Translations under genes and position numbers: made by a program
Assembly (NCBI GenBank): GCA_965223545.1
Contig: OZ245006.1
Coordinates: 7,776,001 to 7,840,000 of the forward strand
Length of the DNA: 64,000 nt
DNA from: Planctomycetota bacterium
GTDB lineage: Bacteria; Planctomycetota; UBA1135; UBA2386
Direction of reading: 5' to 3'
The notes under the pieces: generated by a model
What the model was told of the DNA's origin: nothing
The model's database searches: none
What the model saw: the letters and a program-made list of their open reading frames with translations, nothing else
Part shown: one piece after another, positions 8,766 through 57,227 of the stretch
Position numbering within the stretch: the stretch's first letter is position 1
Layout: each line of letters opens with the position of its first letter

Positions 8766-9527
8766 ATGGCGATTGACTTCCTGCAGATCGATCCGGAGTA
8801 CTTCGATCATCGCCGGTTCCGCGGCATCGGCTTCTGTGGCGTTGTTGCGTTTCAGTTTCTGCTGAAATCGCACAAGCGTAGACCCAACGACGGCATCGTC
8901 AGCGCCGACAGGGCGCACCCGGAGACCATCTGGTGTGGGATCTGCACGATCCAGGAAGGGGTCACTGTCGACGACGTCGCGTGTGCGATGCGCGTGCTGG
9001 CGGAGCGTGGTCTCATCGAGATCCTCGAAAACGGCTCCGTGTTCATCCCGGGCGTTGCCCGCTGGGGACAGAGGCTGTCCCCAGCCCAGACATCCTCTGA
9101 ACGGTCAAGGAAGTCCCGGTCGAGACCTGAACCAGTTGGTGGGCGAGATGCTGAAGAGGCGCCCACTTCTCGGCCATCTCCACCCAGAGAACAGCACCGG
9201 ACGCGCGGCAACAGCGGGACGAACGCAACGCAGTGGGACGCGATGGGACGGCTGGGACGTGTTGCAACGCGATGGGACGGTTGGGACGAACTGCAACGCG
9301 ATGGGACGGATGCAACGCGCGCAACGCTAGAACGAGAACGAGAGCTAGAACGACAGATGACCGGTACCGCCCTCCCTCGCGGTACCGCTAAGAAGGTGGT
9401 GGAGGTGGATATCCCCTCTCAGGTACGGAACGGCGTACCTAAACCACCCTCCGTACCTGACCCACCCCCACCCCCTTCACGCCAGACCGCAACAGGTCCA
9501 CCGCGTAACAGCCGGAGGTGCTCATGA
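8766..9527 (+). CDS. Putative phage replication initiator (lambda O/DnaD-like architecture)
   Basis: N-terminal wHTH-like region, S.ERSRKSR motif, internal DNA repeats, ERERELER linker. Confidence 0.55.
   Translation: MAIDFLQIDPEYFDHRRFRGIGFCGVVAFQFLLKSHKRRPNDGIVSADRAHPETIWCGICTIQEGVTVDDVACAMRVLAERGLIEILENGSVFIPGVARWGQRLSPAQTSSERSRKSRSRPEPVGGRDAEEAPTSRPSPPREQHRTRGNSGTNATQWDAMGRLGRVATRWDGWDELQRDGTDATRATLERERELERQMTGTALPRGTAKKVVEVDIPSQVRNGVPKPPSVPDPPPPPSRQTATGPPRNSRRCS
9216..9352. repeat. Iteron-like direct repeats inside the initiator gene (candidate origin)
   Basis: TGGGACG x6, GCAACGC x5, TGCAACGCGATGGGACGG at 9263 and 9292, then AGAACG repeats. Confidence 0.6.
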
Positions 9528-11553: not shown

Positions 11554-12539
11554 TCCCCTCCGACACCTCGACGTGTGTGCCGGAATCGGCGGCTTCAGCC
11601 TCGGGCTCAAGCTCGCGCTCGGAGATTCCGTCCGGACTGTGGGCTACGTCGAGCGGGAAGCCTTCTGCGCGTCCATCCTCCTGGCGCGGATGGGCGAACA
11701 GGCCCTGGATCGCGCACGTGTGTGGTGCGCGCCGATCGAAGAGTTGGACGGAAGCGAGCTGCGAGGACAGGTCGACATCTTCACCGCCGGGTTCCCGTGC
11801 CAGCCATTCAGCTGCGCGGGCAAGCGACGAGGGATGGCCGACGAGCGCGCCATCTGGCCAGCGATCAGGGATCTCGTCGCCGCAGTGGAGCCAGCTTGCG
11901 TCTTCCTGGAGAACGTCGACGCCGAGTCTTTTCGAGCGCCATGGCGGGACCTTCGAGACATGGGTTTCGAGCTGCCGCCGCCCGTGTGCATCGAAGGCGA
12001 AGACGTTGGCGCCCCCGTCGGGCGTGCGCGGTGGTTCGCGCTGGTCGTCTCCGACCGCTGGCGACAGCAAGCAGAGCGGATCCGCTGCCTACGCAGACAA
12101 AAACCCGAAGGCGGGTACGACGCTAACGGATGCGGTGAGGCGGTGGCCAGCACCGACGGCATGCCTGCGCAGCAGCAACCGCGGGGGCGGCGACAGCGCC
12201 GATCCGCGTGGCTGGAGCAGGAACGGCCCGGAGCGACCGCCCCTTGTGGGGATGGGTGCGAAGTGGGCGGCGCCGACGAGCCGCGACGCGAAGGGGGCTT
12301 GGTCGACGGGGCATGGCTCCGACCTTGGCCGCCAGCTCGCGCAGGCGGGGAGTGGGCCGAGTGGCCAGCGGAGCTCCGAGCTGAGTGGCTCGACTACATC
12401 GCGGCGGGTGGCCCTCAACCCGGAGTTCGACGAGGTGCTGATAGGGTTCCCGCGAGGGTGGACGGATGGGCGGACAGGATCCGAGCGATCGGCAACAGCG
12501 TCTGTCCGCAGATGGTGGCAGCAGCATGGAAGGGATTGA
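11544..12539 (+). CDS. Overlapping-frame methyltransferase beta chain (TRD-like repeats and motif IX)
   Basis: Open alternative frame; WSSPTAGDSK, WPAPTA, WAAPTSRDAK repeats; LNPEFDEVLIGFPRGWT. Confidence 0.7.
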   Translation: MWLIPSDTSTCVPESAASASGSSSRSEIPSGLWATSSGKPSARPSSWRGWANRPWIAHVCGARRSKSWTEASCEDRSTSSPPGSRASHSAARASDEGWPTSAPSGQRSGISSPQWSQLASSWRTSTPSLFERHGGTFETWVSSCRRPCASKAKTLAPPSGVRGGSRWSSPTAGDSKQSGSAAYADKNPKAGTTLTDAVRRWPAPTACLRSSNRGGGDSADPRGWSRNGPERPPLVGMGAKWAAPTSRDAKGAWSTGHGSDLGRQLAQAGSGPSGQRSSELSGSTTSRRVALNPEFDEVLIGFPRGWTDGRTGSERSATASVRRWWQQHGRD

Positions 12540-12544
12540 CGTGA
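11546..12544 (+). CDS. C5-cytosine DNA methyltransferase, alpha chain (motifs I-VIII and X)
   Basis: LDVCAGIGGF, GFPCQPFSCAG, FLENV, RARWF, RIRAIGNSVCPQ. Confidence 0.9.
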   Translation: MADPLRHLDVCAGIGGFSLGLKLALGDSVRTVGYVEREAFCASILLARMGEQALDRARVWCAPIEELDGSELRGQVDIFTAGFPCQPFSCAGKRRGMADERAIWPAIRDLVAAVEPACVFLENVDAESFRAPWRDLRDMGFELPPPVCIEGEDVGAPVGRARWFALVVSDRWRQQAERIRCLRRQKPEGGYDANGCGEAVASTDGMPAQQQPRGRRQRRSAWLEQERPGATAPCGDGCEVGGADEPRREGGLVDGAWLRPWPPARAGGEWAEWPAELRAEWLDYIAAGGPQPGVRRGADRVPARVDGWADRIRAIGNSVCPQMVAAAWKGLT

Positions 12545-13728
12545 GACGTTTCAGTTGGAAGTGTGAGTTTGCTCTCGGGGAAGCTCTGTTCTTGATCGTG
12601 GCCGTGGTCGCGGCGATCGCATCGGTGGCCTACCTGTCCGGTTGCGCGACCGGACCGACGCAGCTCGAGCAATTTCGCGCCGCGATTGGCGCTGACGCTC
12701 CGAATGCGCGACTGCGCGCCGCGGTGGCCCTACCGCCGTACGCGTTCTGCGGTCGGTTCGACGTGCTCGGCCGATGCACACTGATCGGCGGCATGATGCG
12801 CGAGAACGGCGAGCTGACGACCGAGGGCGACACGCTGCATCCCGCGGGACACGGCGGCGACCCGTTCGTCTGGCGCGAGGGCGAGCTGTACCGGATGGAC
12901 TTCCAGCATCCGGTCTATGACCGCGAGCTACGGCGTTGGCCGACCGCGATCGCGCACACGACTTCGACCGATGGACTGCGGTGGACACCGCCGAAGCTGA
13001 TCCGCAAGCCGATCTATCACGAGGACGGCAACCCGCAGCCGACGCAATTCGAGACGCCGGCGCACGCGGAGATCGCGGGGCAGCACGTGCGCGCTCTGCT
13101 GACGTACCGGTACGAGGGACGCTGGAGCCGACGCGACTCGGTGACGCTGTGGGCGTCGCGAGATGTGTTGGGACCGCTTGAGCAGTTCGGCTCGCCGCTA
13201 TCGCCCGAGCTTGCATGGGAGCAGCCATGGCTTGACCCGGATGGGGATCTGGTCGGTGGCGTGCAAGAGCCGACGTTCCTCGGGCCGTTCGGGCCGTGGG
13301 TGATCGTTGTCTATGGCGCTGTGACGTACGGCAAAGGGTTCGTGCCGAGCATCGGGCTCGCGGGCACACCGGACGGTGGGCAGACCTGGGTTCGGTTGCC
13401 GGACCCGATCATCCCCGACGGCGGACAGCCGCATGCGTTCCGCGATCCGCGCGGCGGATTCCACCTGTTCTGGCAGATGCGGGACGGGCCGCGGTACGAG
13501 GTGCACCACGCGTTCAGCGCGGGCAACCTGGCGCAGTGGCATCTCAATCCGGCGAATCCGGTGCTCGCGAGCGGTGGGCCGGACTGGCTCGGGCGGATCA
13601 CGGCGCCTTCTGTGCTCATCGAGGAGCGCGAGGGGCGCTGGGTGTGGCGGATGTGGTTCTTTGGTCATCCCGACGAGGATGAGCGGACCAAGTGGATCGG
13701 TGCGGCCGATTGGGTCGGTCGCCCGTAG
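12541..13728 (+). CDS. Lipoprotein with glycoside-hydrolase-like beta-propeller
   Basis: Signal with LSGC lipobox; GDP, S.DGL.W, QEP, NPANPVL propeller-blade motifs. Confidence 0.65.
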   Translation: MRRFSWKCEFALGEALFLIVAVVAAIASVAYLSGCATGPTQLEQFRAAIGADAPNARLRAAVALPPYAFCGRFDVLGRCTLIGGMMRENGELTTEGDTLHPAGHGGDPFVWREGELYRMDFQHPVYDRELRRWPTAIAHTTSTDGLRWTPPKLIRKPIYHEDGNPQPTQFETPAHAEIAGQHVRALLTYRYEGRWSRRDSVTLWASRDVLGPLEQFGSPLSPELAWEQPWLDPDGDLVGGVQEPTFLGPFGPWVIVVYGAVTYGKGFVPSIGLAGTPDGGQTWVRLPDPIIPDGGQPHAFRDPRGGFHLFWQMRDGPRYEVHHAFSAGNLAQWHLNPANPVLASGGPDWLGRITAPSVLIEEREGRWVWRMWFFGHPDEDERTKWIGAADWVGRP

Positions 13729-13749
13729 GCGTTTGTGGAGGGGTGAGCG

Positions 13750-14610
13750 ATGTTGAGTGGACAGGTGACGGTGCTTCGGCACTGGGACGATGGTGTGCGG
13801 CTCCGGACGACGGTGCCGGGGATTCCGGATGCAGATTGTGCGCTGCGGTTCTTCCGTGGCAGTGGCAGCAACTCAGGCACGGTCATGCTGCACAGCGGGA
13901 CCACGGGGGCCGAGTACATCAGCTCGTCGCCCGAGGGCTTGGAGTTCGTGGCCAACCTGATCGTTAGGGGCTACACGGTCGTCGACCGCAAGTGGCTCGG
14001 GGGATGGTTCGCGGCCGGCTACTCGATCCGTGAGGCGGCGCAGCGAGGTGCGTTGGTCGCCGATTGGGTCATGACGACCGGTGGAACCGGCGGCGGGCTG
14101 CAGGGGCCGTTCCGGGCATACGGCAACTCAGGCGGTGCAGCGGAGGTCGCCTACGGCTTGACCTCGTACGGCATGGGCGATCGCTGGGACCGGGTCGTGC
14201 TTGGCGGTGGGCCACCGATGACGCGACTGCAGTACCTCTGCGCGAGCCCGCCGCCGGCGGCTTGGCTGCAGGAGGCTGAGGCCGCGCTGCAGCCGTACGC
14301 GTCGCAGTTCACCTGCAGCCCGATGACCTGGACGGATCCTGCGACCGTGGTTTGCCCGGTCATCAGCGGCGTTGCGCCTGGTGCTCTGGCTGAGGCGAGC
14401 GTGTTGCATCCGGGGGCGACAACTTCGTTCGGGTGCGAGGTGTCGATGCTGCTCGGGAGCAACGACTGCACGGTTGCAACTCCGCAAGCGGCGGTGTTCT
14501 TCACGGCGATCTCGAGCGCGAAGACGATCTCGATCGTGCCGGGTGGCGAGCACTTCATGCCGGCGACGGCTGGGGGGCGGGCTGCGATCCTGGCCGAGGT
14601 GGATCGGTGA
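13750..14610 (+). CDS. Alpha/beta-hydrolase
   Basis: GNSGG nucleophile elbow, GSND acid, GGEH histidine. Confidence 0.75.
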   Translation: MLSGQVTVLRHWDDGVRLRTTVPGIPDADCALRFFRGSGSNSGTVMLHSGTTGAEYISSSPEGLEFVANLIVRGYTVVDRKWLGGWFAAGYSIREAAQRGALVADWVMTTGGTGGGLQGPFRAYGNSGGAAEVAYGLTSYGMGDRWDRVVLGGGPPMTRLQYLCASPPPAAWLQEAEAALQPYASQFTCSPMTWTDPATVVCPVISGVAPGALAEASVLHPGATTSFGCEVSMLLGSNDCTVATPQAAVFFTAISSAKTISIVPGGEHFMPATAGGRAAILAEVDR

Positions 14611-14775: not shown

Positions 14776-15342
14776 ATGAAAACTTGCACGGTTACGTTGC
14801 GGGGTGCCTCACCCTATTCGCAGTCCCGGCCCTTCCAGACCGAGATCGGCCCGAAGGAGTCGCACGAGGCGTTCGAAAAGCGCTGCTGGAGCGAGCGGCT
14901 CCACAAGAACGGCAACGGCGACGTCATCATTCCGCCGACGAGCCTCAAGGACTGTCTTTGGCAGGGCGCGAAGTACCTGTCAATCAAGAAGAAGGGGCAG
15001 CAGACATGGACCAAACACTTCCGATCCGGAGTGATGGTCGTCGTCGCTCCGGTCTTGACGGTCAAGGCAGATGAGGTAGAGGGTGAGTGGCTGTTCCTGA
15101 ATGCCGATGGCAAGAAGGGCTCTGGCACTCGCGTTTGGCGCTGCTACCCGAAGATCCCGGAGGGATGGCAGACGAACGTCTCGTTCGTGGTTCTGGACGA
15201 CGAGATCACTCAGGACATCTTCTTCCGCGTTCTGCGGGAATCCGGGATGCTGATCGGCATTGGTAGGTTTCGGCCGGAGAACGGGGGCTACTACGGTCGG
15301 TTCGACTTCGATCCGAAAGAGGCCCAGTGGGTCGAGGGCTAG
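14776..15342 (+). CDS. Solo Cas7/RAMP-superfamily protein (188 aa)
   Basis: N-terminal strand TVTLRGASP, RAMP-type IIPPTSLKDCL motif, C-terminal G-rich loop GMLIGIGRFRPENGGYYGRF; no other cas genes. Confidence 0.75.
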   Translation: MKTCTVTLRGASPYSQSRPFQTEIGPKESHEAFEKRCWSERLHKNGNGDVIIPPTSLKDCLWQGAKYLSIKKKGQQTWTKHFRSGVMVVVAPVLTVKADEVEGEWLFLNADGKKGSGTRVWRCYPKIPEGWQTNVSFVVLDDEITQDIFFRVLRESGMLIGIGRFRPENGGYYGRFDFDPKEAQWVEG

Positions 15343-15345
15343 TTT

Positions 15346-15667
15346 CGCAACGCCTCGCGACGCTGCGCCGCGCCACGCCGCGCATCGCACCGCACCGCGT
15401 CGCACCGCTCCGCTTCGCCCCGCTTCGCGGCGCAACTCCATGCAACGATCCAGCTTCCCGCCGCACCGCGGCGCCTCGCCGCGCACCGCCCCGCCGACCC
15501 CACATCGCTCCGTACCGCACCGCGGCACATCACAGCTCTACTCGACGCAACGCAACGAACTGACCCAAGCGATTTTCCAACACGTCGCCACGCGCCACGA
15601 CGCGTTGCGCTTCAACGCGACGCTACTCAACGCCACACCACTTATCGCGACGCTCCGCAACTCAACG
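15346..15667 (+). ncRNA. Pentamer (CGC-NN)n array 1: three candidate guide-RNA units
   Basis: Near-strict 5-nt period with CGC/CAC/CTC/TGC triplet and variable dinucleotide; units about 15346-15447, 15457-15557, 15581-15667, each ending CAACG. Confidence 0.7.
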
Positions 15668-15696
15668 TCTTTCTACCCGCAAGGGAGGGCCTAGCA

Positions 15697-16224
15697 ATGA
15701 CCGAGACCAGAGTCGAGCTGAAGGGCAAGAAGAGCCCGATTCACCCGCCGCACCCGGATACGCGAATCCTGGTGGAGAAACTGCGTGCCATCGAGCCGGG
15801 GGCGACCGTCACCTACTCCGAGATTGCAGAGTGGGTCGGTCGCGATCCGCAAAAGCAGCGAGGTCCGCTTGTCTCCGCGATGCGACGGTTGCTGCAGGAG
15901 GGCATCCGTTACGTCAGCGTCAAGAACGTGGGCGTCCAACGCTATACCAGCAGCCAGATCGTCAACCAGGATCTGCTGAAGGCGACGGTCAAGATCGGCC
16001 GGGCTGCTCGGCGCGCTGTTGCGGTCGCAGCAAACTGCGTTGACGTCACGAAACTGAGCCCGGACGAGCGCCGCGACTTGGAGGCGCGGAACTCGGTGCT
16101 CTACTTCGCGGCGAAGGGAACCAGTCAGAGCTTCGTCAAGCGCTTGCGCGAGCACGTTCCGGAGAGCTTGGAGGCGCTGCCGTTGTCGCGGACGCTGGAG
16201 GTTTTTCGGGAGACTCAGTCCTGA
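15697..16224 (+). CDS. Hypothetical protein between the two arrays (possible wHTH N-terminus)
   Basis: GGGAGG RBS; IEPGATVTYSEIAEWVGRD. Confidence 0.75.
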   Translation: MTETRVELKGKKSPIHPPHPDTRILVEKLRAIEPGATVTYSEIAEWVGRDPQKQRGPLVSAMRRLLQEGIRYVSVKNVGVQRYTSSQIVNQDLLKATVKIGRAARRAVAVAANCVDVTKLSPDERRDLEARNSVLYFAAKGTSQSFVKRLREHVPESLEALPLSRTLEVFRETQS

Positions 16225-16228
16225 CCTC

Positions 16229-16936
16229 TACCACGCTTCGCGGCGCTCCGCAGCGCTTCGCGCCGCAACGTGACGCTCTGCCTCGCAACGCTTCGCATCG
16301 CAACCCCTCTTTTTTCCACGCATCGCCCTGCCGTGCCCTGCATCGCTCCACACCGCACCTTGGCACATCGCAGCGCTACGCAACGCGACCGACAAACCAA
16401 CTCACACAACCTGCAGCATTCCACAGCGCCCCGCGTCGCAGCTCTCCGCGCCGCTCCGCAGTGCCGCGCAGCACTGCACTTCGCGTCGCATTGCTCCGCA
16501 ACTCACCGCAACGATTCTCATCTTCTCGCCGCCGCTCCCCTCGACGCGCTGCATCGCTTCGTGGCGCATCGCAGCGCTCCGCGGCGCGCTGCAACGCTCC
16601 GCAACGATTCCATCTTCCCGACGCCACGCCTCACGACTCACCGCCCCGCTTCGCGTCATATCGCATCGCCTCGCCGTTCCACGCATCGCTCCTCGACGCA
16701 GCGCTCGGCGCCGCAACGTTTCAGCCCCCCAATACATCTACTTCGCAGTGCGCTGCACTGCTTCGCTCCGCAACACTACGTGGCGCATCGCTTCGCTCCG
16801 CAGCACTACGCAACGATTTGGCTTCCGTCGACGCGCTGCATCGCTCCGCCCCATTACGCCGTGCTCCGCTTCGCCGCGCTCTTCTCCGCTCCGCTACTCG
16901 TCGCAGCGCACCTTATCGCGACTCAACTCAACGCAA
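16229..16936 (+). ncRNA. Pentamer (CGC-NN)n array 2: seven candidate guide-RNA units
   Basis: Units about 16229-16303, 16314-16388, 16412-16513, 16525-16606, 16617-16718, 16739-16815, 16827-16936; terminal CGCAAC(G) followed by short, mostly pyrimidine-rich linkers. Confidence 0.7.
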
Positions 16937-16957: not shown

Positions 16958-17443
16958 ATGCCAAGAACTAACATCTACGTTCCTGATCCTCTTCGTGCCC
17001 GCATGAGAGAGCACCGCGCGAACTGGTCGAGAGTCTGTGCCGCCGCGATTGCCGCCAAGCTTGAGGAGATCGACCGCGATTCCAAAGCAACTCTTTCGGA
17101 CGACGCGGTCGTCACTCGATTACTTGCGACCAAGTCGGACGACCAGGTTCAAGACGAGACCCTGGGATTCAACGTAGGCGTCCGGTGGGCCAAGACCAGG
17201 GCCCGGTGGCGCGAGCTAGAGAGCCTGGAGCGGGCTCATCCCAAGCGCGCCTCTGATTTGGATGCCACGGAATGGCTCTGGTCCGCGATTGGCCGAGAAG
17301 GTCACCCTACTCCTGACGAAATCCAGGAGTTGTTCGACCGTCCGCCAACAAGGGTCTCCCAGAGCCTTGCCAACGGGTTCGTCACCGGAGCGCTCGCGGT
17401 GTTCAGGGACGTGCAGAAGCAGATCGCCGGCGGGGCTGGATAG
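16958..17443 (+). CDS. Ribbon-helix-helix (CcdA-like N-terminus) regulator
   Basis: MPRTNIYVPDPLRARMRE...NWSRVCAAAIAAKL. Confidence 0.65.
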   Translation: MPRTNIYVPDPLRARMREHRANWSRVCAAAIAAKLEEIDRDSKATLSDDAVVTRLLATKSDDQVQDETLGFNVGVRWAKTRARWRELESLERAHPKRASDLDATEWLWSAIGREGHPTPDEIQELFDRPPTRVSQSLANGFVTGALAVFRDVQKQIAGGAG

Positions 17444-17966: not shown

Positions 17967-19940
17967 ATGACACACCGAATCGCGGCGTTCGTCGCCCCGC
18001 TCCTGTTCCTGCTCTCGCTGCCGGCGCAAGACCCGGTGGCGAGCGTCCACGTCGTCAACCTCGCCGGCCAACCGCGGTCGAGCATCGTGACGACGGTTCT
18101 CCCGTGGGCGCAAGGCGAGTACTACGGCCAGTCCCTTTCCGTCGCCGGCACCGCGCTCGACGTTCGCCAGCTCGGCGCATCGTGGCCCGACGGCTCCTGG
18201 CGCTACGCGCGGACGCACGTGCCCGTCCGGGTCGAGGCTCGGAGCCGAGTTCTTGTCCCGGTATCCCGGGACACCGCCGCACCGACCGCCTTCCGCTGGA
18301 CCCAATCCGTTGCCCAAGGCGCCGCCAAGCTCCGCATCATCCTCCGCGTCGGCGCCGCGGCCGCGGCGTTCGGCGCCTGGCAGCCGATCGAGAACGGCAA
18401 CCTCGTCAAAGCATGGCGCTCCCGCATCCGCGTCCCTGGCACCGTGGTCTGGGGCGAGTGCGTGCTCGAGGCCCTCTCCGGACACGACCTCGCCCGTGCC
18501 TGGATCTCGTTCGGCGACTCCGATCCGCGCGACCCGGCGTTGTCTCACGCACTACCCGCGATCGAGCTCGAGGTCGCTGGCGCGCATCCGGTCGTTCGCC
18601 ACGGGCAGACCAAGGTGCTCGCCGCGAGCTTCGCCGGCAACGCCATCCGCATGCGTGTGTGCCGACCCGCGACCTGGGCCGACGGCGAGTCGCAGACGCT
18701 GCACCTCTCTCTACTCTTCCCGACGACCGACTGGCAGACCGCGGAGGCTGAGCGAACCGTGCCGCTGCTCGCGGTCGCTGATGGCTGGGCTGAGTCGGGA
18801 GCGTTCGGTCCGTGGGGCTACGTGCCCGAGTCCTCTCGCGTCGACGAGGCCGAGGCGCGCCGGCGCGCGACCGCCGACTATCGAGCGATCCCGATCGGCG
18901 ACCCCTGGGCCGCGGCGCTGCTCGGCAATGCTCCGTATGCCGGCCAACCAGGCGACCAGACCGACTTCTCCTCGGTGGTGATGACGATGGCCGCCGCGGG
19001 GCAGCCGCATCGGCTCTACGCGATCGACTGGAGCGTGCGGCAGTCCGCGTGCCGGCCGACGCATCTGCGCGACGAGACCGGGGCGCCGGTGCTCATGTCG
19101 CAGGATCCCGACATCCTGCTGTGGGATTGCCGGCCGGACATGCGCATCACGCGCAACCGGCTGGGTAAGGAGCCAGGGCCGTCGAAGGGCCACGGTGCTT
19201 GGCAGGGTCACGCGGTCTCGCACTATTCGATCAACTACCTGGCAACCTACGCACTGCTCACCGGCGACCGCTGGGCGCTGTCCGAGATCGATCACCACTG
19301 CGAGACCTGGCTGGGCATGGTCCGCGTCAACTCCGGCAATACCGTGCTCGATAGCATGGGATCGGCGCGGACTGTGGGACGCACGCTGCAGGTTGGGACG
19401 TGGCTCTACCTGCTCACTGGCCGGCAAGACATCGCCGAACGGCTACGTGCGCGCGTGGCGTTGACCGCGGAGCAGTGGGTGGGCCGCACTTCGTCGCCCG
19501 TGCGCATCCTGGCTGTCGAGCCGAAGAAGGGCTCGATGCTCGACGGGCGCTGGGCGGGTTGGAAGCCGTGGATGGAGGCGATCGGCGTGCGCGGGCTCGA
19601 CGCGGTGGCTCAAGTGCTCGGCGACGAAACCGCGGCGGATCTCTCCCGGCACGTGGCCCGGACGGTCGCGACCTGGGGCATCTGGCAGACCGAGAGCGGC
19701 TGGACGGCGGCCGACGCGCTGCGCTGGATCGAGGGCGGTGCGGCGCTGACCGCGGATCAGATCGCGGACGGTGGGCGGTTCGAGTACCGGCCGTTTCTGC
19801 TGTGGATCGCGCCGGCGCTAGTCATCCTGGAGCGCGAGGCAGTTGCAGCAGGCGACGAGGCGATGGCGGCTCGGTGTCGGTCGGCGCTCGGGGCGATCGC
19901 TAGCGACTGGCGGTCGCGGGAGTGGGTGGCGTTGCGGTAG
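17967..19940 (+). CDS. Secreted protein, exo-rhamnogalacturonan-lyase-like (PcRGLX-type N-terminus, alpha/alpha barrel)
   Basis: Signal peptide ending LLSLPAQ; LP...G...LGASWPDGSWRY motif; YALLTGDRWA. Confidence 0.5.
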   Translation: MTHRIAAFVAPLLFLLSLPAQDPVASVHVVNLAGQPRSSIVTTVLPWAQGEYYGQSLSVAGTALDVRQLGASWPDGSWRYARTHVPVRVEARSRVLVPVSRDTAAPTAFRWTQSVAQGAAKLRIILRVGAAAAAFGAWQPIENGNLVKAWRSRIRVPGTVVWGECVLEALSGHDLARAWISFGDSDPRDPALSHALPAIELEVAGAHPVVRHGQTKVLAASFAGNAIRMRVCRPATWADGESQTLHLSLLFPTTDWQTAEAERTVPLLAVADGWAESGAFGPWGYVPESSRVDEAEARRRATADYRAIPIGDPWAAALLGNAPYAGQPGDQTDFSSVVMTMAAAGQPHRLYAIDWSVRQSACRPTHLRDETGAPVLMSQDPDILLWDCRPDMRITRNRLGKEPGPSKGHGAWQGHAVSHYSINYLATYALLTGDRWALSEIDHHCETWLGMVRVNSGNTVLDSMGSARTVGRTLQVGTWLYLLTGRQDIAERLRARVALTAEQWVGRTSSPVRILAVEPKKGSMLDGRWAGWKPWMEAIGVRGLDAVAQVLGDETAADLSRHVARTVATWGIWQTESGWTAADALRWIEGGAALTADQIADGGRFEYRPFLLWIAPALVILEREAVAAGDEAMAARCRSALGAIASDWRSREWVALR

Positions 19941-20826: not shown

Positions 20827-22401
20827 CTACAGAAGCCCGCACGCAGCCTCTGTTCGTCCTCGCGCCTGTCGGCTCAGCCATTCTCTCCGCTGCCGACAGA
20901 GCAGGTCAAACGCCTCCTCGGGATCTGTCAGCGACGGCGCCACATCCGCCGCCTGCGAGATCAGTGCGGCCGCTTCCGGCTCCGCACCGATGAGTAACGA
21001 CCGGAGCAGCCCCGCCCCATCCACCGCAGCGATCGCGGTCGCCCGCTCAACAATCGGCCCGACCACTCCAAGCTCAGGCTCGGCTGTCGCCATCGCGGCG
21101 AGGTGGGGCCTGGCGATCACGCACGCGAGCAGCTCGACGGACGATTGCGCAAGCGGGTCCGCTCGCTTGGGGGGCTCCGCGTCGCGCTTGTGCTTGGTCG
21201 CGACTCGGATCGGTTGGATGCCAAGCTCGCGCCCCATCCGCTGCCCGAGCAGCTCGCGCTCGGCGGGATCCTCGATGACACCTAGCACACGCCGACAGTC
21301 CGCCAAGACCTCGCGGTCGGGGCGACCCCGCTTAAGGCCCAGCCACACCCGCAGCGCGTCGTCCGCCGAATCCACGATCCCGCGCAACTGTTCGGGCTGA
21401 GTGCGCGCCAGGTCGGCGGGGTCGACGCCCTCAGGCAGTAGTCCTATGCGCAGGTCGAGTCCAACGGGCGCGAGTTCCGCGTATGCCCGTTCCGCCGCGG
21501 CGCGCCCCGCCTTGTCGCCGTCGAGTAGGAGCACGACCCCATCCGACGCCCAGCGTGCAAGCGCTTGCCCGTGATCGGCAGTGATCGAGGTCCCAAGCGC
21601 CGCGACCGCCCCTGTCAGCCCCGCGCCGTGGCAAGCGAGCACGTCGGTGTAGCCTTCAACCACGACGATGCGGCGGGCGCCGGCGCGCTTGGCCTGGTGG
21701 AGGCCGTAGAGCTGTCGCCGCTTCTGGAAGGCTGGCGACTCGGGGGAGTTGATGTACTTGGCGCGAGCCTGGGTCATCGCGCGGCCGCCGAAGCCGACGA
21801 TGCGGCCGCGGGCGTCGGCGATCGGGAACATGAGTCGACCTAGGAACGGTTCGCGGTCGCCGCGTAGGATCCCAGTCGCGTCGAGCGCTGCCAGGTCGAG
21901 ACCCTCGCGTCGCACCCATCCAGCGAGCGCGCCCGGATTGCCAGGATGTAGCCCGACGCCGAACGTGGCCGCAATCTCGCCAAGCCCGCGGTCCTCGAGG
22001 TACGAGCGTGCCCGGGCTCCGGCCGGACTCCGGAGGTGAGCTTGGCAAGCTCTTGCCACGGCTTGGAGCGCTTCCGACGGCTGTGGCGCCCGGGTCGAAG
22101 GTCCGGAGAAGATGCCTTCGGTGTCGATCCCGGCTCGCCGTCCAAGTTCCTCCACAGCCTCGCGGAAGCTCAGCCCCTCGCGCTCCTGCAGCAGCGCGAA
22201 AGCGTCTCCTGATGCCCCGCAGCCATAGCATTTCCAACGCTGCGAGTCCGGGTAGACGGTAAAGGACGACGTCCGCTCCTGGTGTAGAGGGCAGAGACCG
22301 ACGAGCCGATGGCCACTCGGCTTGAGCCGCGTGTACCCCTCGACAAGCGCTGCGAGGTCGGTGGCCTCCTTGATTTGCAGCTTGCGGGACTCGTCCATCA
22401 C
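20827..22401 (-). CDS. dnaG: DnaG-type DNA primase
   Basis: CHC2 finger CPLHQERTSSF...CYGCG, FGGR, KYINSPES, TOPRIM VVEGYTDV / LDGDKAG. Confidence 0.95.
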   Translation of the reverse strand: MMDESRKLQIKEATDLAALVEGYTRLKPSGHRLVGLCPLHQERTSSFTVYPDSQRWKCYGCGASGDAFALLQEREGLSFREAVEELGRRAGIDTEGIFSGPSTRAPQPSEALQAVARACQAHLRSPAGARARSYLEDRGLGEIAATFGVGLHPGNPGALAGWVRREGLDLAALDATGILRGDREPFLGRLMFPIADARGRIVGFGGRAMTQARAKYINSPESPAFQKRRQLYGLHQAKRAGARRIVVVEGYTDVLACHGAGLTGAVAALGTSITADHGQALARWASDGVVLLLDGDKAGRAAAERAYAELAPVGLDLRIGLLPEGVDPADLARTQPEQLRGIVDSADDALRVWLGLKRGRPDREVLADCRRVLGVIEDPAERELLGQRMGRELGIQPIRVATKHKRDAEPPKRADPLAQSSVELLACVIARPHLAAMATAEPELGVVGPIVERATAIAAVDGAGLLRSLLIGAEPEAAALISQAADVAPSLTDPEEAFDLLCRQRREWLSRQARGRTEAACGLL

Positions 22402-22459: not shown

Positions 22460-25400
22460 GTGAAACTGGGCGTCAACGTACTGCAGCTCGAGAGCTGGGC
22501 CAAGGCGAGGCCTTTCCAGAACGAGGCGCTTCAGGCTGCGTGGCCTCGCACCGACGGCTTCGTCGGCCCGGCTACGTACGCTGCCGGCGACTACGCCGCT
22601 GGCACGACGTACATGCTGCTGCTCACCGATGGCGATAGCCTCCCCACGGGCGACTACGTCTGGAAGGTCAGCGGCAACGCTGCGGGCAATGTCAACTCCG
22701 TCACCGTCAACGGCAACGGCGCTTCCACGGGCCCCAACAGCTTCACGGTCAGCGGCTCTCCACCGGTCAACGTGTGGCTCGACTTCACGGTCAGCGCGAC
22801 GACCGCGATGGCCGACGTGCAGTTCGAGGTCTACCCCGCGGGGTTCCGTTCGGGTGGCACCTGGAAACCAGAATTCGCCGACGCGCTGCGACCGTTCCGT
22901 CAGTGCGTCCGGCTCATGGATTGGAATGGCGCTTTCTCGCAGCTCGACGGAAGCGCGCCGTTCCCAATCTCCTACTCCGCCAGTCTACGGCCCAACACAA
23001 CCACATCGACGCACTGGTCGGGGACGACCTTCACCAACACGGGTGTTCGGGCCAAGTTTTGCAACGTGCCGCACGCGGAGCGCATCTGGCTCTGCGTGCC
23101 ACTCTACATCGGGCGCAATCAGACCAAGTTCCTGTCTTGGCTGAACGCGCGACTGAATCAGATCCCGACGTCGACCAAGGTCTACGTCGAGCTGAGCAAC
23201 GAGCTGTGGAATACCAACTTCCCGCAGCACGGTGTTCTAGACGACGCCTCGTTCGCCGAGTTTGGCGCCGGTATCCCAGGGCCTGAGCGCAACGCGATCG
23301 TCGCGAGCCGCTGGGCAAAAGAAATGAAGGACTGGGTCGTGGCAGCCGAGCTGCAAGGCCGCGTCCAAGTCGTCTTCGCCTGGCAGAACGCAGCAAGCGG
23401 ATCGTTTCCGTTCACGTCGCCGCCGTGGCTTGGCGGCAACCCTGTCCACCCCGAAGCGGTCGCCAACATCCAAGCGATAGGCCGCGTTGCGGTCGCTCCG
23501 TACTTCGGCAGCGGCGTCACGAGCCTTGCGAACCTGTCCGCCTCGATCACTCAGCCGATCGCGGATCTCGAGACCTGGCGCGACGATGTCACGGACGCGC
23601 TCGGCATCAAGCTGCTGTGCTACGAGGCGGGGCAGCATGTCGAGAACCAACCCGAGTCTTGGCAGAACTCTCCGGAGATGCTCGCCGCTATCGACGAGTA
23701 CCTCGACGAGCTCGAGACCGCGCTCGCGTCCGACGCTGAAGTCTGCTGGTACGGGCTCGCGAACGGATGGGACGCGCAGCAGGCATGGGGTCTGATCGAG
23801 ACCTTCGAAGAGCGCACAGACAAGTACCGCCTCGTGGCGTCTCGTGCGTCGGGCTACGGCTACGGCTTCCCAAGGCAGGAGCGGACCACGACGCTGGGGT
23901 CACTCGTCAACGGCACGTCGGCGCCGTGGCGGGGATCGCCGAACCAGGGTCACGGCGATGTCTTCGCCTACCACGATCCGGTAGCCGGTCTGGCGACGCT
24001 GTACTTCGGTGCGCGCAACACGATCGCCTACAGCGAGCAGTCGCCCTTCAACCCCGACAACATCCTCCAGCAGTGGAGCGAGACGCCGGCAGACCCCGGA
24101 TCACCATCGTGGCCGATCGCGCAGCTGTACGGGATCGAGGGGACGGCCAGCGAGGACGGTCTCGACACACCGTGCCTCATGTGGCACCCCGTGCTGCAGA
24201 AATGGTTCCTGTACCACCAGGTGATTCCCGGCACGACGCCCAACGGCGAGGCGGGCAGCATCTTCGCGATCCAGGCCGCGAGCTCGACCAACCCGACACA
24301 CTCCTCGCGCGTTTGGGTCCGGCATCCAGGATTTGTCCTGCAGGCCGACCAGGCGTGGGAGGGCGGTTTCCAGGTCTTCGAAGGTGAGCCCCCGAGCCAG
24401 ATCGTGACATGGCGCGGTGGCGTCAGCGAATGCTCGTTCTTTTGGGAGCCGCGACTCGGCCGCACGGTTGCGTTTTACCGCGGTCACAACGAGATCAGTC
24501 CCGGCGGAGCGCACCGGTGGCGGCTCGGGCGTGCGGTTGAGGATGCGGCGCTAGACGGACTGACGTTCACAAAGGACGCGGACTACGTCTTCTCGCCGTA
24601 CGAAGACACGCCGTCGGGTTACTCCGGTGCCGCGACCTCGGGCGCGCATCACTACAGCGTGCACCGCGACCCGACCGACGGGTCGTATCACTGCTTCTAC
24701 CTGCACGCGATCGGCACGTCCAACTGGGGCGTCCACCACATGCGGTCGGATGCCCTTGGCGTCAAGGGATCGTGGGTCGTCAACCCAGCTAATCCACTCA
24801 TCACGATCAGCTCGATCTCCGCTGATCTCGGCGGAGGTGAGGGGCTGCCAACGAAGGTGGGGGCGCCGTGCCTGTTGCCGGACCTGGCTAGCGGCAAGTT
24901 GTTCGTTTTCTTCGATGGCGCACCGGTGCAGCGGTACGTCAACGCCGGCGTGTTCGTCGCCGAGTCGTCGGTCGAGCGCGTCGTGACGGTGGGCGTGATC
25001 GAGGCGGGGACGAGTGTCGGTGCCGCCTCGACCGGCACGTCGGGTGGATCGCAGACCGTGGCCGTGTCTGTGCAAGAGGCTGTTTCGAGCGTGGCAGCGC
25101 CGGCGGTCTCACGCGTCATTCAGGTGCCACCACAGGACGTGGAGTTCCAGGTTTGCGACTGCCCGGTCGTGCAGGAGACCGCGCGGCTCGTGCTCGGGCA
25201 GAACCTGGAGACGGGAGTCGGTGCGGTTGGGATGGCTCGCGTCATCCCGGTCGCCACTGTGGAGCTGACGACCTCGGCGCCGGCAGTTGGCATGGATCGT
25301 GCGATTGCGGTCTCGGGCCAGACCGTGTCGGCAACCGCGCCATCCGTCGGGATCGTGCTCCGCGTAGCAGCGATCGAGGTGTCGACCTCTACCGCTGGGG

Positions 25401-27064
25401 CAAGTGTCGCCAACGCTCTCGTGCCTGCCGTGCTCGAGGCGCTTGCAACCACGGGATCGGTGACGGTCTCGCGCACGGTGCAGGTCCCGGCGCAGACAGC
25501 CTCGGCCTCGACCGGGATGGTCGGCGTCGAGGGCGCTCACCTGGTCGAGCCCCAAGAGGTTGTCACCGAGACCTTGCCAGTGCAGGTCTCGCGCGTCGTC
25601 ACTGTGCCGGCGCTCACTGCTATGGCCAGCGTTGGCCAGGTATCTCTCGACCGATTGCTGACTCTGGCCGCGGTGTCCGTGACCGCGACGACCGCGAGCG
25701 TCGGCATGGGGCGGGTGCTGCGGCCGGCCACGCAGCCGTTGGTCACCTCTACTCCTGCGCTGCAGGGCTCGACCAGGGTTGTTGCGGTCGGAGTCGTCGA
25801 GCTATCGACGTCAACCCCGTCGCTGGGCAGCGCGAGAGTGATGGCGGTCGCTGTGCAGGCAGTCTCCACAGAGACTCCAGCGCCGACTTCTGTCGGCGTC
25901 GTGATCCTGTTCCCGGCCGCGCAGCAGGCGGTCGCGACCATCACTTCGCCGACGGTGCTCGGTGGCAGCGTTGCACGCGTCCGCTTCCCGTCGCCGTTCG
26001 TGGTCTCTGGCCGGATGTTGACCGACGGCGGCAGCTTTGCAACAGACTCGAGCGAGAGCGATCCGCACGTGCGCGTCTCCGATGACGGCACACAGCTCGA
26101 GCTGCTGTTCTGTGCCTACGAGGATGCGCCCCAAGTCAACACCGAGGCCCCGCGTCCGTTGCAGATCGGTTACGCGGAGATGCCGATCGATGGAGATCCG
26201 CTGGCGGACTGGTCGGCGAGCTACGAGGCGGGCGATCCCGAGTCGCTGCAGATGGCGGCGACGCCGACGAGTCGTCACCGCAATGGTGTCACGGGGCCGC
26301 ACGTCGTTCGGCATTCTGCGCTCGGCGGGCTCAAGCTGCTGTTCTTCGCGCAGGATCCTGGCGTGCGCCCCGCGGACTCGGGGGGCAATACGCACACGGG
26401 CCAGGTCTCATCGATCGCGGTGGCGACTTCGCCGCAGCCGAATGGCAGGCTGTGCCGATGGTGCCTTGGAGGCGACGTCGATCGAGCAACCTTGGTGGAG
26501 CCTGGCAACGATTGGGCGCAGGCGTACACGACGGTGCCGGGTCCGGGTGTGCTCGAGTACGCCGGCGGGCACCGGGATCCGACCGCGGTCGAGCGGCCTG
26601 GCACCGACGAGCTGCTGGTCTTCACGGTTGCCGAGAGCGACTCGGGTCTGGTGCTCTCGCGCGCGGTGTCGACCGTGACCTCGGGGCGGATCATTCGGCC
26701 GATCGAGGACCCGGCGCCGGTGCTGTCTGGGATCGGTGGTGGGGCGGACGTGATCCTCGACCCGGATGGGCAGACGCTGCACCTGGTGTGTCAGGCGACC
26801 GATGGCCACCTCGACCACTACATGAGCACGGGGTGGGGTGCGGCAGGGACGTGGACCGCGAACCCAGCCAACCCAATCTTGCGGGTCGATGCTGCGGGGT
26901 TGTCCGGGATCGTCGGCACCGATGTGCTCGGCGGGCCGAGGCTTTTCATCCCCTCTGGCGGCGACGAGTTCTGGATGGTGCTCGACTTCCGGCCCGCAGG
27001 GGGCCGGGGTGGTGTTGGGGCCGGGCTGTACCTGGCGACGTCGGGGAGGCTCCTGGGGCTCTAG
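22460..27064 (+). CDS. 1534-aa multidomain glycan-active protein, probably virion-associated
   Basis: GH-like N-terminal domain (RLMDWN, VELSNELWN, YEAGQH), two propeller domains (NPANP), Val/Thr/Ala beta-repeat stalk. Confidence 0.65.
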   Translation: MKLGVNVLQLESWAKARPFQNEALQAAWPRTDGFVGPATYAAGDYAAGTTYMLLLTDGDSLPTGDYVWKVSGNAAGNVNSVTVNGNGASTGPNSFTVSGSPPVNVWLDFTVSATTAMADVQFEVYPAGFRSGGTWKPEFADALRPFRQCVRLMDWNGAFSQLDGSAPFPISYSASLRPNTTTSTHWSGTTFTNTGVRAKFCNVPHAERIWLCVPLYIGRNQTKFLSWLNARLNQIPTSTKVYVELSNELWNTNFPQHGVLDDASFAEFGAGIPGPERNAIVASRWAKEMKDWVVAAELQGRVQVVFAWQNAASGSFPFTSPPWLGGNPVHPEAVANIQAIGRVAVAPYFGSGVTSLANLSASITQPIADLETWRDDVTDALGIKLLCYEAGQHVENQPESWQNSPEMLAAIDEYLDELETALASDAEVCWYGLANGWDAQQAWGLIETFEERTDKYRLVASRASGYGYGFPRQERTTTLGSLVNGTSAPWRGSPNQGHGDVFAYHDPVAGLATLYFGARNTIAYSEQSPFNPDNILQQWSETPADPGSPSWPIAQLYGIEGTASEDGLDTPCLMWHPVLQKWFLYHQVIPGTTPNGEAGSIFAIQAASSTNPTHSSRVWVRHPGFVLQADQAWEGGFQVFEGEPPSQIVTWRGGVSECSFFWEPRLGRTVAFYRGHNEISPGGAHRWRLGRAVEDAALDGLTFTKDADYVFSPYEDTPSGYSGAATSGAHHYSVHRDPTDGSYHCFYLHAIGTSNWGVHHMRSDALGVKGSWVVNPANPLITISSISADLGGGEGLPTKVGAPCLLPDLASGKLFVFFDGAPVQRYVNAGVFVAESSVERVVTVGVIEAGTSVGAASTGTSGGSQTVAVSVQEAVSSVAAPAVSRVIQVPPQDVEFQVCDCPVVQETARLVLGQNLETGVGAVGMARVIPVATVELTTSAPAVGMDRAIAVSGQTVSATAPSVGIVLRVAAIEVSTSTAGASVANALVPAVLEALATTGSVTVSRTVQVPAQTASASTGMVGVEGAHLVEPQEVVTETLPVQVSRVVTVPALTAMASVGQVSLDRLLTLAAVSVTATTASVGMGRVLRPATQPLVTSTPALQGSTRVVAVGVVELSTSTPSLGSARVMAVAVQAVSTETPAPTSVGVVILFPAAQQAVATITSPTVLGGSVARVRFPSPFVVSGRMLTDGGSFATDSSESDPHVRVSDDGTQLELLFCAYEDAPQVNTEAPRPLQIGYAEMPIDGDPLADWSASYEAGDPESLQMAATPTSRHRNGVTGPHVVRHSALGGLKLLFFAQDPGVRPADSGGNTHTGQVSSIAVATSPQPNGRLCRWCLGGDVDRATLVEPGNDWAQAYTTVPGPGVLEYAGGHRDPTAVERPGTDELLVFTVAESDSGLVLSRAVSTVTSGRIIRPIEDPAPVLSGIGGGADVILDPDGQTLHLVCQATDGHLDHYMSTGWGAAGTWTANPANPILRVDAAGLSGIVGTDVLGGPRLFIPSGGDEFWMVLDFRPAGGRGGVGAGLYLATSGRLLGL

Positions 27065-33208: not shown

Positions 33209-33449
33209 CCGATTCAAGTGCCCAGGCTGCACCTACTCGGTTGAGGTTGAGGTCGAGATCGGCCTCCGTGTCCGCGAAGGGCAGGAGCCTGTGGACATGC
33301 GTTGGGCGTCGATGACGTTCGGCGAGGCTCAGTTTCATCTGGTGCGCGCGCACTTGAAGGCGGCCGGGGGCCACCGTGAGCAGGCGGCGCGCTCCCTGGG
33401 CGTCAGCGAACGGACGCTATATCGGTGGATGGCGAAGGCGGGGATCTGA
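33201..33449 (+). CDS. Fis-type HTH protein with N-terminal CxxC
   Basis: GGHREQAARSLGVSERTLYRWM. Confidence 0.7.
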   Translation: MTSRFKCPGCTYSVEVEVEIGLRVREGQEPVDMRWASMTFGEAQFHLVRAHLKAAGGHREQAARSLGVSERTLYRWMAKAGI

Positions 33450-34273
33450 TGACGAGAAAGAACAAGCTGCACGCCCAGCACCCGAAGGCTTTGGCGCACG
33501 GGATGGGCAATGTCGCCTGGTGCGGCACCTACGGTGAGGTGGCGGCCGTGTCGGAGAAGGTGGATTGCTTGCGCTGCAAGGCGATGCAGGAGAACTCAGA
33601 CAGGGGTCGGGAGCCGACACGAACTGCCCGCTACCTGCTCAAGACCGTTGGCCCCAAGGGCGAGGCACATGGCGGCTTCCGTTGGCCGCTCACGCCTGAC
33701 ACAGTCGTCACGGCCCCGGATTGGGACCCGACTCCTGAGTGCGGCGGCGGACTTCACGGCGCGCTGAACGGCGAGGGAGATGGCGGCCTGTTCGATTGGA
33801 GCGAAGGCGCGATCTGGATTGCGGCCGAGATCCCAGAGGGCGTTGAGGTCGTCGACCTCGGCGGCAAGGTCAAGGTGCAATCATGCATCGTCTGGGTGGC
33901 TGGCACCCGCGAAGAGGCTACGTCATGGCTGAGTGAGCGGTGCCCGGGGGCGGCGATCATCGGGGGCACGAGCACGTCGGGCAACCGCGGCACGAGCACG
34001 TCGGGCGACGGAGGTACGAGCACGTCGGGCAACGACGGCACGAGCACGTCGGGCAACGACGGCACGAGCACGTCGGGCGACTATGGCACGAGCACGTCGG
34101 GCAACGGCGGCACTAGCACGTCGGGCGACGGAGGCATGCTCGCAATCAAGCGCTGGGACGGCTCCCGCCACAGGCTGCACGTCGCCTACGTCGGCGAGAA
34201 CGGCATCGAACCCAACGTGCCCTACCGGCTCGACGAGGACGGCAAGTTCGTGCGTGCGGAGGACGAGGAATGA
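33449..34273 (+). CDS. Phage protein with GTSTSG(N/D)x repeats
   Basis: APDWDPTPECGGGLHG domain, 7 octapeptide repeats, YVGENGIEPNVPYRLD tail. Confidence 0.75.
   Translation: MTRKNKLHAQHPKALAHGMGNVAWCGTYGEVAAVSEKVDCLRCKAMQENSDRGREPTRTARYLLKTVGPKGEAHGGFRWPLTPDTVVTAPDWDPTPECGGGLHGALNGEGDGGLFDWSEGAIWIAAEIPEGVEVVDLGGKVKVQSCIVWVAGTREEATSWLSERCPGAAIIGGTSTSGNRGTSTSGDGGTSTSGNDGTSTSGNDGTSTSGDYGTSTSGNGGTSTSGDGGMLAIKRWDGSRHRLHVAYVGENGIEPNVPYRLDEDGKFVRAEDEE
33965..34132 (+). repeat. 7 x 24-bp coding tandem repeat
   Basis: GGCACGAGCACGTCGGGC(A/G)ACNNN units. Confidence 0.9.
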
Positions 34274-52413: not shown

Positions 52414-52811
52414 GGTGGCGCCAGGAGCACGGAGACCAATGGCTGGACGAGGACGGCAACTGGACCAAGGCGCTGCGGGCAGCGATCGCAGCCGGGACGC
52501 CACCAGAGGATTGGACCAACCGGCCGGAGATCAAGACCGAGTGGGTGCCACTTCTCCATCTGTGGTTGGACTGCGACGCGACCCGGACCTACTGCACGGT
52601 GACGGGGCGTCCGCATCGGGTCCGTATGTCGGAGGCGCTTGCTGGATGCGAGCTGCATGGTCTTCGCCGACGGTGGTGGTACTGGACCGCGATCTGCGAG
52701 GTCGACGTCCAGATGCTCCGGGACCGCAAACCGAAGGAGAAGGGCCTCAACCCGCCGACCGATGACGGAATAGTCATCCGCGGCGCGCCCGAGAGCGATG
52801 CCGACCGTTGA
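52392..52811 (+). CDS. -1 frameshift extension of the chaperone (gpGT-like)
   Basis: The -1 frame is open from GGGAAAC (52392-52398) to 52811. Confidence 0.7.
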   Translation, partial: GKLVSFLRWRQEHGDQWLDEDGNWTKALRAAIAAGTPPEDWTNRPEIKTEWVPLLHLWLDCDATRTYCTVTGRPHRVRMSEALAGCELHGLRRRWWYWTAICEVDVQMLRDRKPKEKGLNPPTDDGIVIRGAPESDADR

Positions 52812-56705: not shown

Positions 56706-57227
56706 ATGACATCCGTGCTCGAGGTTGCAAAGTACGTACAGGCAAGGGTTGGTTCTGACTCCAACACGCTGAAGGTCCAGAAGCTGTGCTACTACGCGCA
56801 GGCGTGGCATCTTGCGTGGACGGGGACGCCCTTGTTCGCGGAGCGGATCGAGGCGTGGAGGCTCGGGCCGGTGTGCCCGATCCTCTACGACGCTCAGTAC
56901 CACCAGCAAGAAAAGTTGGTGGGCGAGGGCAAGTTGTCCGAGAAGCAGCGGTTGGTAGTCGACCAAGTGCTGGAGGCTTACGGCAACAAGTCTCCCGGCG
57001 AGCTGTCGGAGCTGACGCATCGGGAGGATCCGTGGCGTGATGCGCGTGGCGACGTGAGTCCCGAGGCGCGGACGAACACCGAGATCTCCCAGGCCGCGAT
57101 GCAGAGCTACTTCTCGGACCAGAAGCTAGCCAGGAGCGAGGAGGAGTGGTCTTCGGATCAATCCTTCGAGGACTTGGCGCGCTCTCTGGCCCGTCAGTAC
57201 TCCAGTCTGCTGCATCGGTTGGCGTGA
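56706..57227 (+). CDS. Panacea (DUF4065/SocA-like) antitoxin
   Basis: LKVQKLCYYAQAWHL...PLF.ERIEAW.LGPV, LSELTHREDPW. Confidence 0.9.
   Translation: MTSVLEVAKYVQARVGSDSNTLKVQKLCYYAQAWHLAWTGTPLFAERIEAWRLGPVCPILYDAQYHQQEKLVGEGKLSEKQRLVVDQVLEAYGNKSPGELSELTHREDPWRDARGDVSPEARTNTEISQAAMQSYFSDQKLARSEEEWSSDQSFEDLARSLARQYSSLLHRLA

Follow-up and report, generated by a model that had tools for sequence, protein, structure and literature searches.

A prophage-borne VIPR locus with a CGC guide scaffold, and guides that match a satellite in the same Planctomycetota chromosome

The DNA analysed here, referred to below as the window, is a 64,000-nucleotide stretch of a Planctomycetota chromosome. It contains a compact locus, all of it on the + strand, in which a gene for a 188-residue protein, vipr (14776–15342), is followed by two blocks of pentameric repeats (15346–15667 and 16229–16936), with a second gene, vap (15697–16224; 175 residues), lying between the blocks. 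The locus belongs to a 77.5-kb prophage (genome G000, contig C1:7775487–7852941) that is bounded by a repeat of a tRNA-Asn 3′ end and carries terminase, portal, capsid and tail genes, including a tape measure gene (window 52798–55503, + strand), and, away from the VIPR locus, a gene for an HNH protein.

Gene content was assessed with a PHROG scan of 54 ORFs, 49 from the window and five from the satellite described below. The regions flanking the locus (window 12466–14610, 17967–19940 and 22460–27064) hold large ORFs of 420, 286, 657 and 1534 residues that have no PHROG match, and a DnaG-like primase gene lies at 20827–22401 on the minus strand. Three 29-nt direct repeats (9216–9317) fall inside ORF 8766–9527 and are presumably placed like iterons in a candidate replication initiator gene. 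Seven 24-nt tandem repeats (33961–34136) lie within ORF 33425–34273, a member of PHROG 18079 of unknown function, and a Doc-like toxin gene with an upstream partner gene is inserted in the tail module (56715–57616).

The two array blocks have lag-5 self-match values of 0.57 and 0.51, compared with 0.32 ± 0.02 and 0.30 ± 0.02 in 500 shuffles, and no other part of the window passes the mean + 2 sd for a period-5 signal. Ten units (U1–U10) of 15–22 pentamers each were parsed. Among 181 pentamers the leading triplet is CGC in 114, TGC in 16, CTC in 15 and CAC in 14; the information content of positions 1–3 is 1.37, 0.87 and 1.67 bits, falling to 0.06 and 0.03 bits at positions 4 and 5. Every unit ends in CAA-C, eight of the ten in CAACG, and a GAT...CTTC linker follows U1, U6, U7 and U9. 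The preliminary description, made from the letters alone, had reported a 5-nt period in two blocks, a near-constant triplet with a free dinucleotide (NN), about ten units of 15–22 pentamers and CAAC(G) unit ends, and all of this holds.

Two of the units appear to be paralogues. U2 (15457–15555), which has a one-base register slip at 15497–15500, and U5 (16314–16388; 15 pentamers) share 11 consecutive identical dinucleotides, where the chance maximum in 300 shuffles is 5. Over the same stretch 11 of 33 scaffold positions differ, one of them being the base missing from U2. It is therefore the NN string that has been conserved, and not the triplet.

The arrays are not those of a CRISPR system. 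The preliminary description had noted the absence of cas1, cas2, cas3, cas5 and cas6 and of a repeat-spacer array; a search of the window for CRISPR-like repeat families was negative, the genome (91% complete) gave no cas1, and PADLOC gave no match for three proteins of the locus. Searches of the genome yielded no other convincing pentamer or orphan array and no solo decoy guide. Five units tested for a structured 3′ tail like the SUSP1 pseudoknot gave no fold signal (z −1.3 to 1.8), an Rfam search and a promoter scan found nothing, and no array variants were seen in four DNA runs.

The vipr product, of which the genome holds a single copy, is a single-RRM RAMP protein with a thumb and a G-loop, and the RAMP motifs quoted in the preliminary description are present in its ORF. 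Among 564 candidates, 530 vipr homologues were recognised, and a profile built from 116 of 120 listed homologue sequences matches the Vipr protein of phage SUSP1 (PDB 36PP) with an E-value of 5.6e-9, the next match having an E-value of 0.037. This profile match bears out the VIPR relationship that the preliminary description had suggested. Comparison with a Felixounavirus Vipr homologue gives an hhalign value of 96.9%, at about 21% identity. The predicted structure has a pLDDT of 96 (a single-sequence fold, with pLDDT 35, was discarded), and its closest folds are those of Csm3 and type VII Cas7, with Z 12.2 and rmsd values of 2.6 (over 146) and 3.5 (over 134). These proteins head the fold ranking because 36PP is absent from the fold-search matches, the Foldseek library ending in April 2026. 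Neither Vipr nor Vap is named above cut-off by Pfam, NCBIfam or PADLOC, PHROG 4652 is unannotated, and a single-protein scan of IMG/VR found no relative.

In SUSP1 Vipr the first scaffold base, G1, is read by H17 and D177 and the second, G2, by R138 and W178, according to the accessible text of 10.64898/2026.04.26.720927. In the 116-homologue profile alignment, D177 and R138 correspond to R164 and Y124 of the present protein. The SUSP1 structure thus does not transfer directly, and the alignment suggests that this clade must read its own scaffold differently.

The preliminary description had treated vipr as a solo gene; in this it was mistaken, since the ORF between the array blocks is a conserved partner. 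Matches to vap were found by tblastn in 55 of 124 vipr loci, and its product clusters with ORFs from about 100 vipr loci (the 103 sources counted take in the window itself as well as some spurious frames read from arrays). Vap has a weak winged-helix-like N-terminus, matches Pfam PF01035 below the cut-off (E 0.001), resembles unnamed viral clusters and is distantly, and weakly, related to vipr-adjacent genes of a Pseudomonas prophage and of a Felixounavirus (hhalign 73–78%; Felixounavirus 73%). It is the only conserved neighbour of vipr. The ORF that follows the array (16958–17443, + strand; 161 residues) is not conserved beside vipr elsewhere, with one weak match in 124 loci. The N-terminus of its family looks, by eye, like that of a ribbon-helix-helix regulator.

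A second mobile element in the same chromosome provides the context for the guides. This is a 14.7-kb island of lower GC content (C1:4158920–4173601), flanked by a 20-bp repeat of a tRNA-Met 3′ end, that encodes an integrase, an Xer-like second recombinase, an HTH protein and a 920-residue tape measure protein. The tape measure proteins of island and prophage are 39% identical (E 5e-149), with ends that are nearly identical, including the first ∼73 residues, and a 162-residue island ORF is 41% identical to the ORF at window 16958–17443. Of nine prophage proteins tested against the island, the tape measure alone matches well, and the prophage terminase, portal, capsid, tail and primase proteins have no counterpart there. 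No head gene was seen among 18 island ORFs scanned against PHROGs, several of which have no annotation, nor by tblastn with the prophage head proteins, apart from one weak scaffold match (E 0.004); no baseplate gene was recognised.

Phage satellites are described in the accessible text of 10.64898/2026.10.15.759431 as att-flanked elements of 4–35 kb with an integrase and a tail module gene and no capsid, terminase or portal. The island agrees with this in its 20-bp repeat, its integrase and tape measure genes and the failure to find a head gene. Because it shares a tape measure and the 41% identical ORF with the prophage and lacks head-gene counterparts, we read it, from gene content, as a satellite of the prophage that carries the VIPR locus, one that appears to steal the phage tail machinery.

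Searches of IMG/VR, JGI metagenomes and 90 family genomes found no relatives of this satellite. Within the genome there are two decayed ones, at C1:6909400–6918300, where a tape measure fragment lies beside a tRNA-Ser gene and includes an 88% identical segment, and at C1:7922190–7923010, where an HTH gene fragment is present; neither has a guide match above background. The satellite also carries, at C1:4161741–4162595 (L127:11741–12595), two tandem paralogues of the ORF at window 16958–17443 (41% and 34% identity), which might represent a regulator taken over from the helper or might serve as a counter-measure.

The NN strings of the guides were scanned against the whole genome with 0–3 bases skipped between successive dinucleotides. 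Matches with one base skipped (the NNx spacing) cluster at 4.16–4.17 Mb, which is the satellite. The satellite region was noticed after this first scan and was then compared among 549 equal segments of the same genome: its summed z is 38.2, that of the next best segment is 10.0, and the sd is 3.2. At skips of 0, 2 and 3 the summed z of the satellite is 1.3, −2.5 and −1.1, and these spacings were rejected since the signal is absent at each. The summed guide score is 147, against at most 118.5 in 200 order-shuffled guide sets. The satellite ranks first among the 549 segments for U6, U8 and U10, second for U1 and no lower than third for U7; the remaining six queries, U2 having been split into two halves, score at or near background on it. 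The non-contiguous target code that the preliminary description had inferred from the arrays is thus supported.

These comparisons bear on the simplest alternative, that the arrays are low-complexity DNA or a replication or packaging repeat and the matches artefacts of codon periodicity in GC-rich DNA. NNx strings do resemble coding DNA, the genome is 70% GC, and the satellite region was singled out after a first scan. Nevertheless, the signal is not reproduced by same-genome segments, by other skips or by shuffled guides; arrays are retained next to homologous genes in different phyla, on scaffolds that vary; and the element matched is the one that has a tape measure in common with the prophage. 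We regard this explanation as largely refuted and hardly credible.

Five guides have matches in satellite genes. U10 (16827–16936; 22 pentamers) matches the Xer-like recombinase gene (C1:4170956, − strand) at 29 of 36 bases over pentamers 2–19. Two guides match the tape measure gene: U6 (16412–16511; 20 pentamers) at C1:4165824 on the − strand, with 26 of 28 bases over pentamers 4–17 and both mismatches of wobble type, and U8 (16617–16716; 20 pentamers) at C1:4166153 on the + strand, where its 3′ half is perfect (16/16 over pentamers 10–17) and the score over pentamers 3–17 is 20/30. U7 (16525–16604; 16 pentamers) matches the satellite ORF C1:4160393–4161520 at 4161207 on the − strand (21/26 over pentamers 3–15), a score reached in 3 of the 549 segments. 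U1 (15346–15445; 20 pentamers) matches an ORF for a 62-residue protein (C1:4168485, + strand) at 17 of 20 bases over pentamers 2–11, or at 18 of 18 when a single pentamer is allowed to bulge.

In all five targets the skipped base is codon position 3. Two guides match coding-strand sequence and three the opposite strand, both kinds occurring within one gene. Of the 27 mismatches, nine (T>C or G>A) are of a kind that a + strand guide could accommodate by wobble pairing and four run the other way, which is no more than a weak hint. When the guides are read as codons, several of the mismatches exchange one amino acid for a similar one within the same protein. The prophage's own sequence scores at background (10–11.5); its tape measure gene gives 10.0 and 10.5 for U6 and U8, compared with 23 and 16 for the satellite gene. 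All five matches are imperfect over the full length of the guide, and the two long guides U1 and U8 match over about half of theirs. Such long units may be two guides fused into one, or may tolerate a bulged repeat.

For U2–U5 and U9 no clear target was found in the genome at the DNA or decoded-protein level; these include U3 (15576–15667; ∼18 pentamers), U4 (16229–16303; 15 pentamers) and U9 (16739–16813; 15 pentamers). A U2a site near the left end of the satellite was not counted, 25 of the 549 segments being as good, nor was a U2b/U5 site at 4171237, where by hand count the skip would fall on codon position 1. An exact 8-dinucleotide scan of IMG/VR with U3 gave 29 matches, none of which extended (at most 7 of 16 outside bases). 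Insensitive searches with three guides from other CGC loci gave no skip-1 targets, one guide of locus L003 having one chance match and two of locus L103 none in their own genome. The preliminary description had expected silencing of rival phage or host genes. A rival mobile element is indeed what the sequence matches suggest, the satellite being matched by five of ten guides; host genes are not, none having stood out.

Computation thus shows a prophage with vipr, vap and ten CGC/NN units, five of whose NN strings, spaced as NNx, match genes of a satellite in the same chromosome with the skip at the wobble position. We conclude, with a probability of about 0.85, that the locus is the VIPR anti-satellite system of a temperate phage, for silencing satellite genes. 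By analogy with SUSP1, the + strand array would be transcribed and cut into guides of ∼75–110 nt, on each of which Vipr would polymerise, one subunit per pentamer, with the triplet buried and the NN displayed. The resulting filament of Vipr and guide RNA (vrRNA) would invade duplex DNA, skipping every third base, and would block transcription without cutting, aided by Vap. With a recombinase, the tape measure and small early genes silenced, the satellite would be prevented from leaving the chromosome and from hijacking virion assembly, most plausibly at prophage induction.

A different mode of action, in which satellite RNA is the target, or a nuclease of host or phage is brought in by the complex, rather than DNA being silenced by occupancy, has some attraction, since Csm3 and type VII Cas7, the nearest folds in the structure libraries searched, target RNA, and the prophage does encode an HNH protein elsewhere. 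The mixed orientation of the targets, two on the coding strand and three opposite and both within one gene, is however what double-stranded DNA as target would give, and the sole conserved neighbour of vipr, Vap, matches no nuclease family. We consider this alternative improbable.

Whether the guides act on the resident satellite today is a separate matter. The same VIPR machinery could be present while the resident satellite is an escape variant or a bystander, the guides recording earlier conflicts with its relatives; the satellite would then persist because it has drifted beyond tolerance. This overlaps with the anti-satellite interpretation and differs from it in present-day activity alone. 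The full-length matches, 21–31 of 32–44 bases, with U8 and U1 matching over half their length, are consistent with it, as are mismatches that, once decoded, correspond to amino-acid variants within the matched genes (for example L>V and F>Y for the recombinase and A>T for the tape measure) and the decayed relatives at 6.91 and 7.92 Mb. Against it, U6 matches at 26 of 28 bases with both mismatches wobble-compatible; the cores of U1, U7 and U10 (85, 81 and 81%) lie around the 80% threshold at which natural VIPR targets were called (10.64898/2026.04.26.720920); and a SUSP1 guide works, according to the accessible text of 10.64898/2026.10.15.759431, at an average of 89% over a short footprint. Escape seems to us a real but rather unlikely account of the whole. 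A more limited statement can be made on the origin of the guides: because the matches range from 67 to 93% and several mismatches are conservative at the amino-acid level, the element that they were made against was probably not the resident satellite itself but a close relative. The half-length matches of U1 and U8, and the lack of any perfect target, indicate that the resident satellite may have escaped.

VIPR is a family described in 2026 preprints, characterised by a Vipr RAMP protein, pentamer guides and a code with a 1-nt skip (10.64898/2026.04.26.720920). The present locus resembles the type II SUSP1 and P. fulva systems of that report in being phage-borne, with a minimal RAMP, one accessory gene and no cas genes, and in its fixed triplet and free NN, its 1-nt skip code with skipping at the wobble position, its targets on both strands and its lack of self-targeting. 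It differs in having CGC (YGC/CHC) in place of a GGY scaffold; in its ten guides of 15–22 pentamers rather than 9–16; in its short pyrimidine-rich linkers and CAA-C ends, with no structured tail detected, unlike SUSP1; and in the protein itself, which differs from SUSP1 Vipr at the D177 and R138 positions. The class 1 CRISPR backbones Cas7 and Csm3 share its RRM core, thumb and G-loop (Z up to 12.2); unlike them, it has no repeat-spacer array, Cas5, Cas6, large subunit or cas1, and its code is non-contiguous.

The biological setting also has a precedent. SUSP1 VIPR targets in F5 satellites block excision and virion hijack, as stated in the accessible text of 10.64898/2026.10.15.759431, and there, as here, a helper VIPR faces an att-flanked satellite with a helper-related tape measure, no capsid and a targeted recombinase. 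In the present case, by contrast, a temperate phage in its integrated state is the helper and shares a single chromosome with its satellite, the host being an unrelated bacterium of high GC content; the satellite has two recombinases and no recognised baseplate gene, and the genome yielded no solo decoy guide.

Homology to Vipr, the minimal vipr and vap locus without CRISPR or cas genes, the pentamers, the computed skip-1 wobble code and the proviral location with mobile-element targets were all found here, and judged on these sequence features the locus is a VIPR member by every one that could be tested. Since non-GGY scaffolds are already present in the published family, it is a variant within that family and not a new class. 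The published examples are YNNNG and NNNNG scaffolds (10.64898/2026.04.26.720920) and, in the accessible text of 10.64898/2026.10.21.760802, clusters with GAC/NN, CAC/NN, WGT/NN and TGH/NN; the likeness to these non-canonical arrays lies in a non-GGY fixed triplet beside a protein of Vipr fold. The suggestion in the preliminary description that CGC marks a different variant therefore stands in part: the main texts of the VIPR preprints, whose figures and supplements may hold CGC logos, do not name CGC, whereas the YNNNG class already published covers it. The accessible texts on non-canonical VIPR tie no target to a named non-GGY scaffold and give no protein determinant of scaffold choice. We do not claim the first target for a non-GGY scaffold, because skip-1 matches have been given for type III and V guides (10.64898/2026.04.26.720920).

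Related loci confirm that such arrays accompany vipr, as the preliminary description had proposed to check, with period-5 segments near the gene in 110 of 124 loci, a set biased by having been picked with patterns containing the GRFRP motif. Pentamer arrays occur beside vipr homologues across phyla, with changing scaffolds: in 108 distinct proteins the dominant triplet is GGC in 38, CGC in 37, GAC in 9, GTC in 6 and CTC in 3, with four singletons and 11 uncalled. Scaffold-change counts rest on quick trees, on which CGC needs 11 changes, of which well-supported branches force one only. At three loci (L006, L007 and L009) arrays called as GGC continue into CGC pentamers, and the scaffolds there are possibly mixed or transitional within one locus. 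Among 90 family genomes the only other Vipr-like match is weak (L179, G086:C755:2209–2667; E 3.5e-5).

Protein residues were compared with scaffold over 96 rows, the 11 uncalled and one AGC system having been dropped. Where the scaffold starts with G, residues 108–109 read VP in 53 of 55 systems; where it starts with C, 38 of 41 systems have another pair there. All 75 systems with G as second base retain both S15 and R164, a combination that is lost in 9 of the 21 others. The starred branches hold one independent pair for residues 108–109 and four for S15/R164, so that we treat both associations, including the apparent tracking of the first scaffold base by the two thumb residues 108–109, as a lead rather than as demonstrated co-evolution.

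A wider proposal, which we offer tentatively and think somewhat doubtful, is that the scaffold is a switchable channel. Within one Vipr clade (37–57% identity) the triplet would have moved repeatedly among GGC, CGC, GAC, GTC and CTC, set largely by the thumb residues 108–109 and the G-loop arginine R164, with the NNx code remaining fixed. Phages might switch channel to escape satellite decoy guides, and CGC and GGC systems could be mutually orthogonal programmable repressors. The genome would then hold a complete helper–satellite conflict, with a previously undescribed family of tape-measure satellites.

VIPR has so far been worked out mainly for GGY guides in phages of E. coli and Pseudomonas. 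The locus described here offers statistical natural-target evidence that the NNx code also applies when the scaffold is CGC and the clade a distant one, and suggests that defence against satellites is found again in a temperate phage that shares its chromosome with the satellite. Its value lies in a natural helper–satellite pair that has been decoded within one chromosome, with ready-made guide–target pairs, and in a residue hypothesis for scaffold reading by Vipr that is testable in E. coli. These may bear on orthogonal, multiplexed gene silencing and on how RNA recognition by RAMP proteins diversified before CRISPR.
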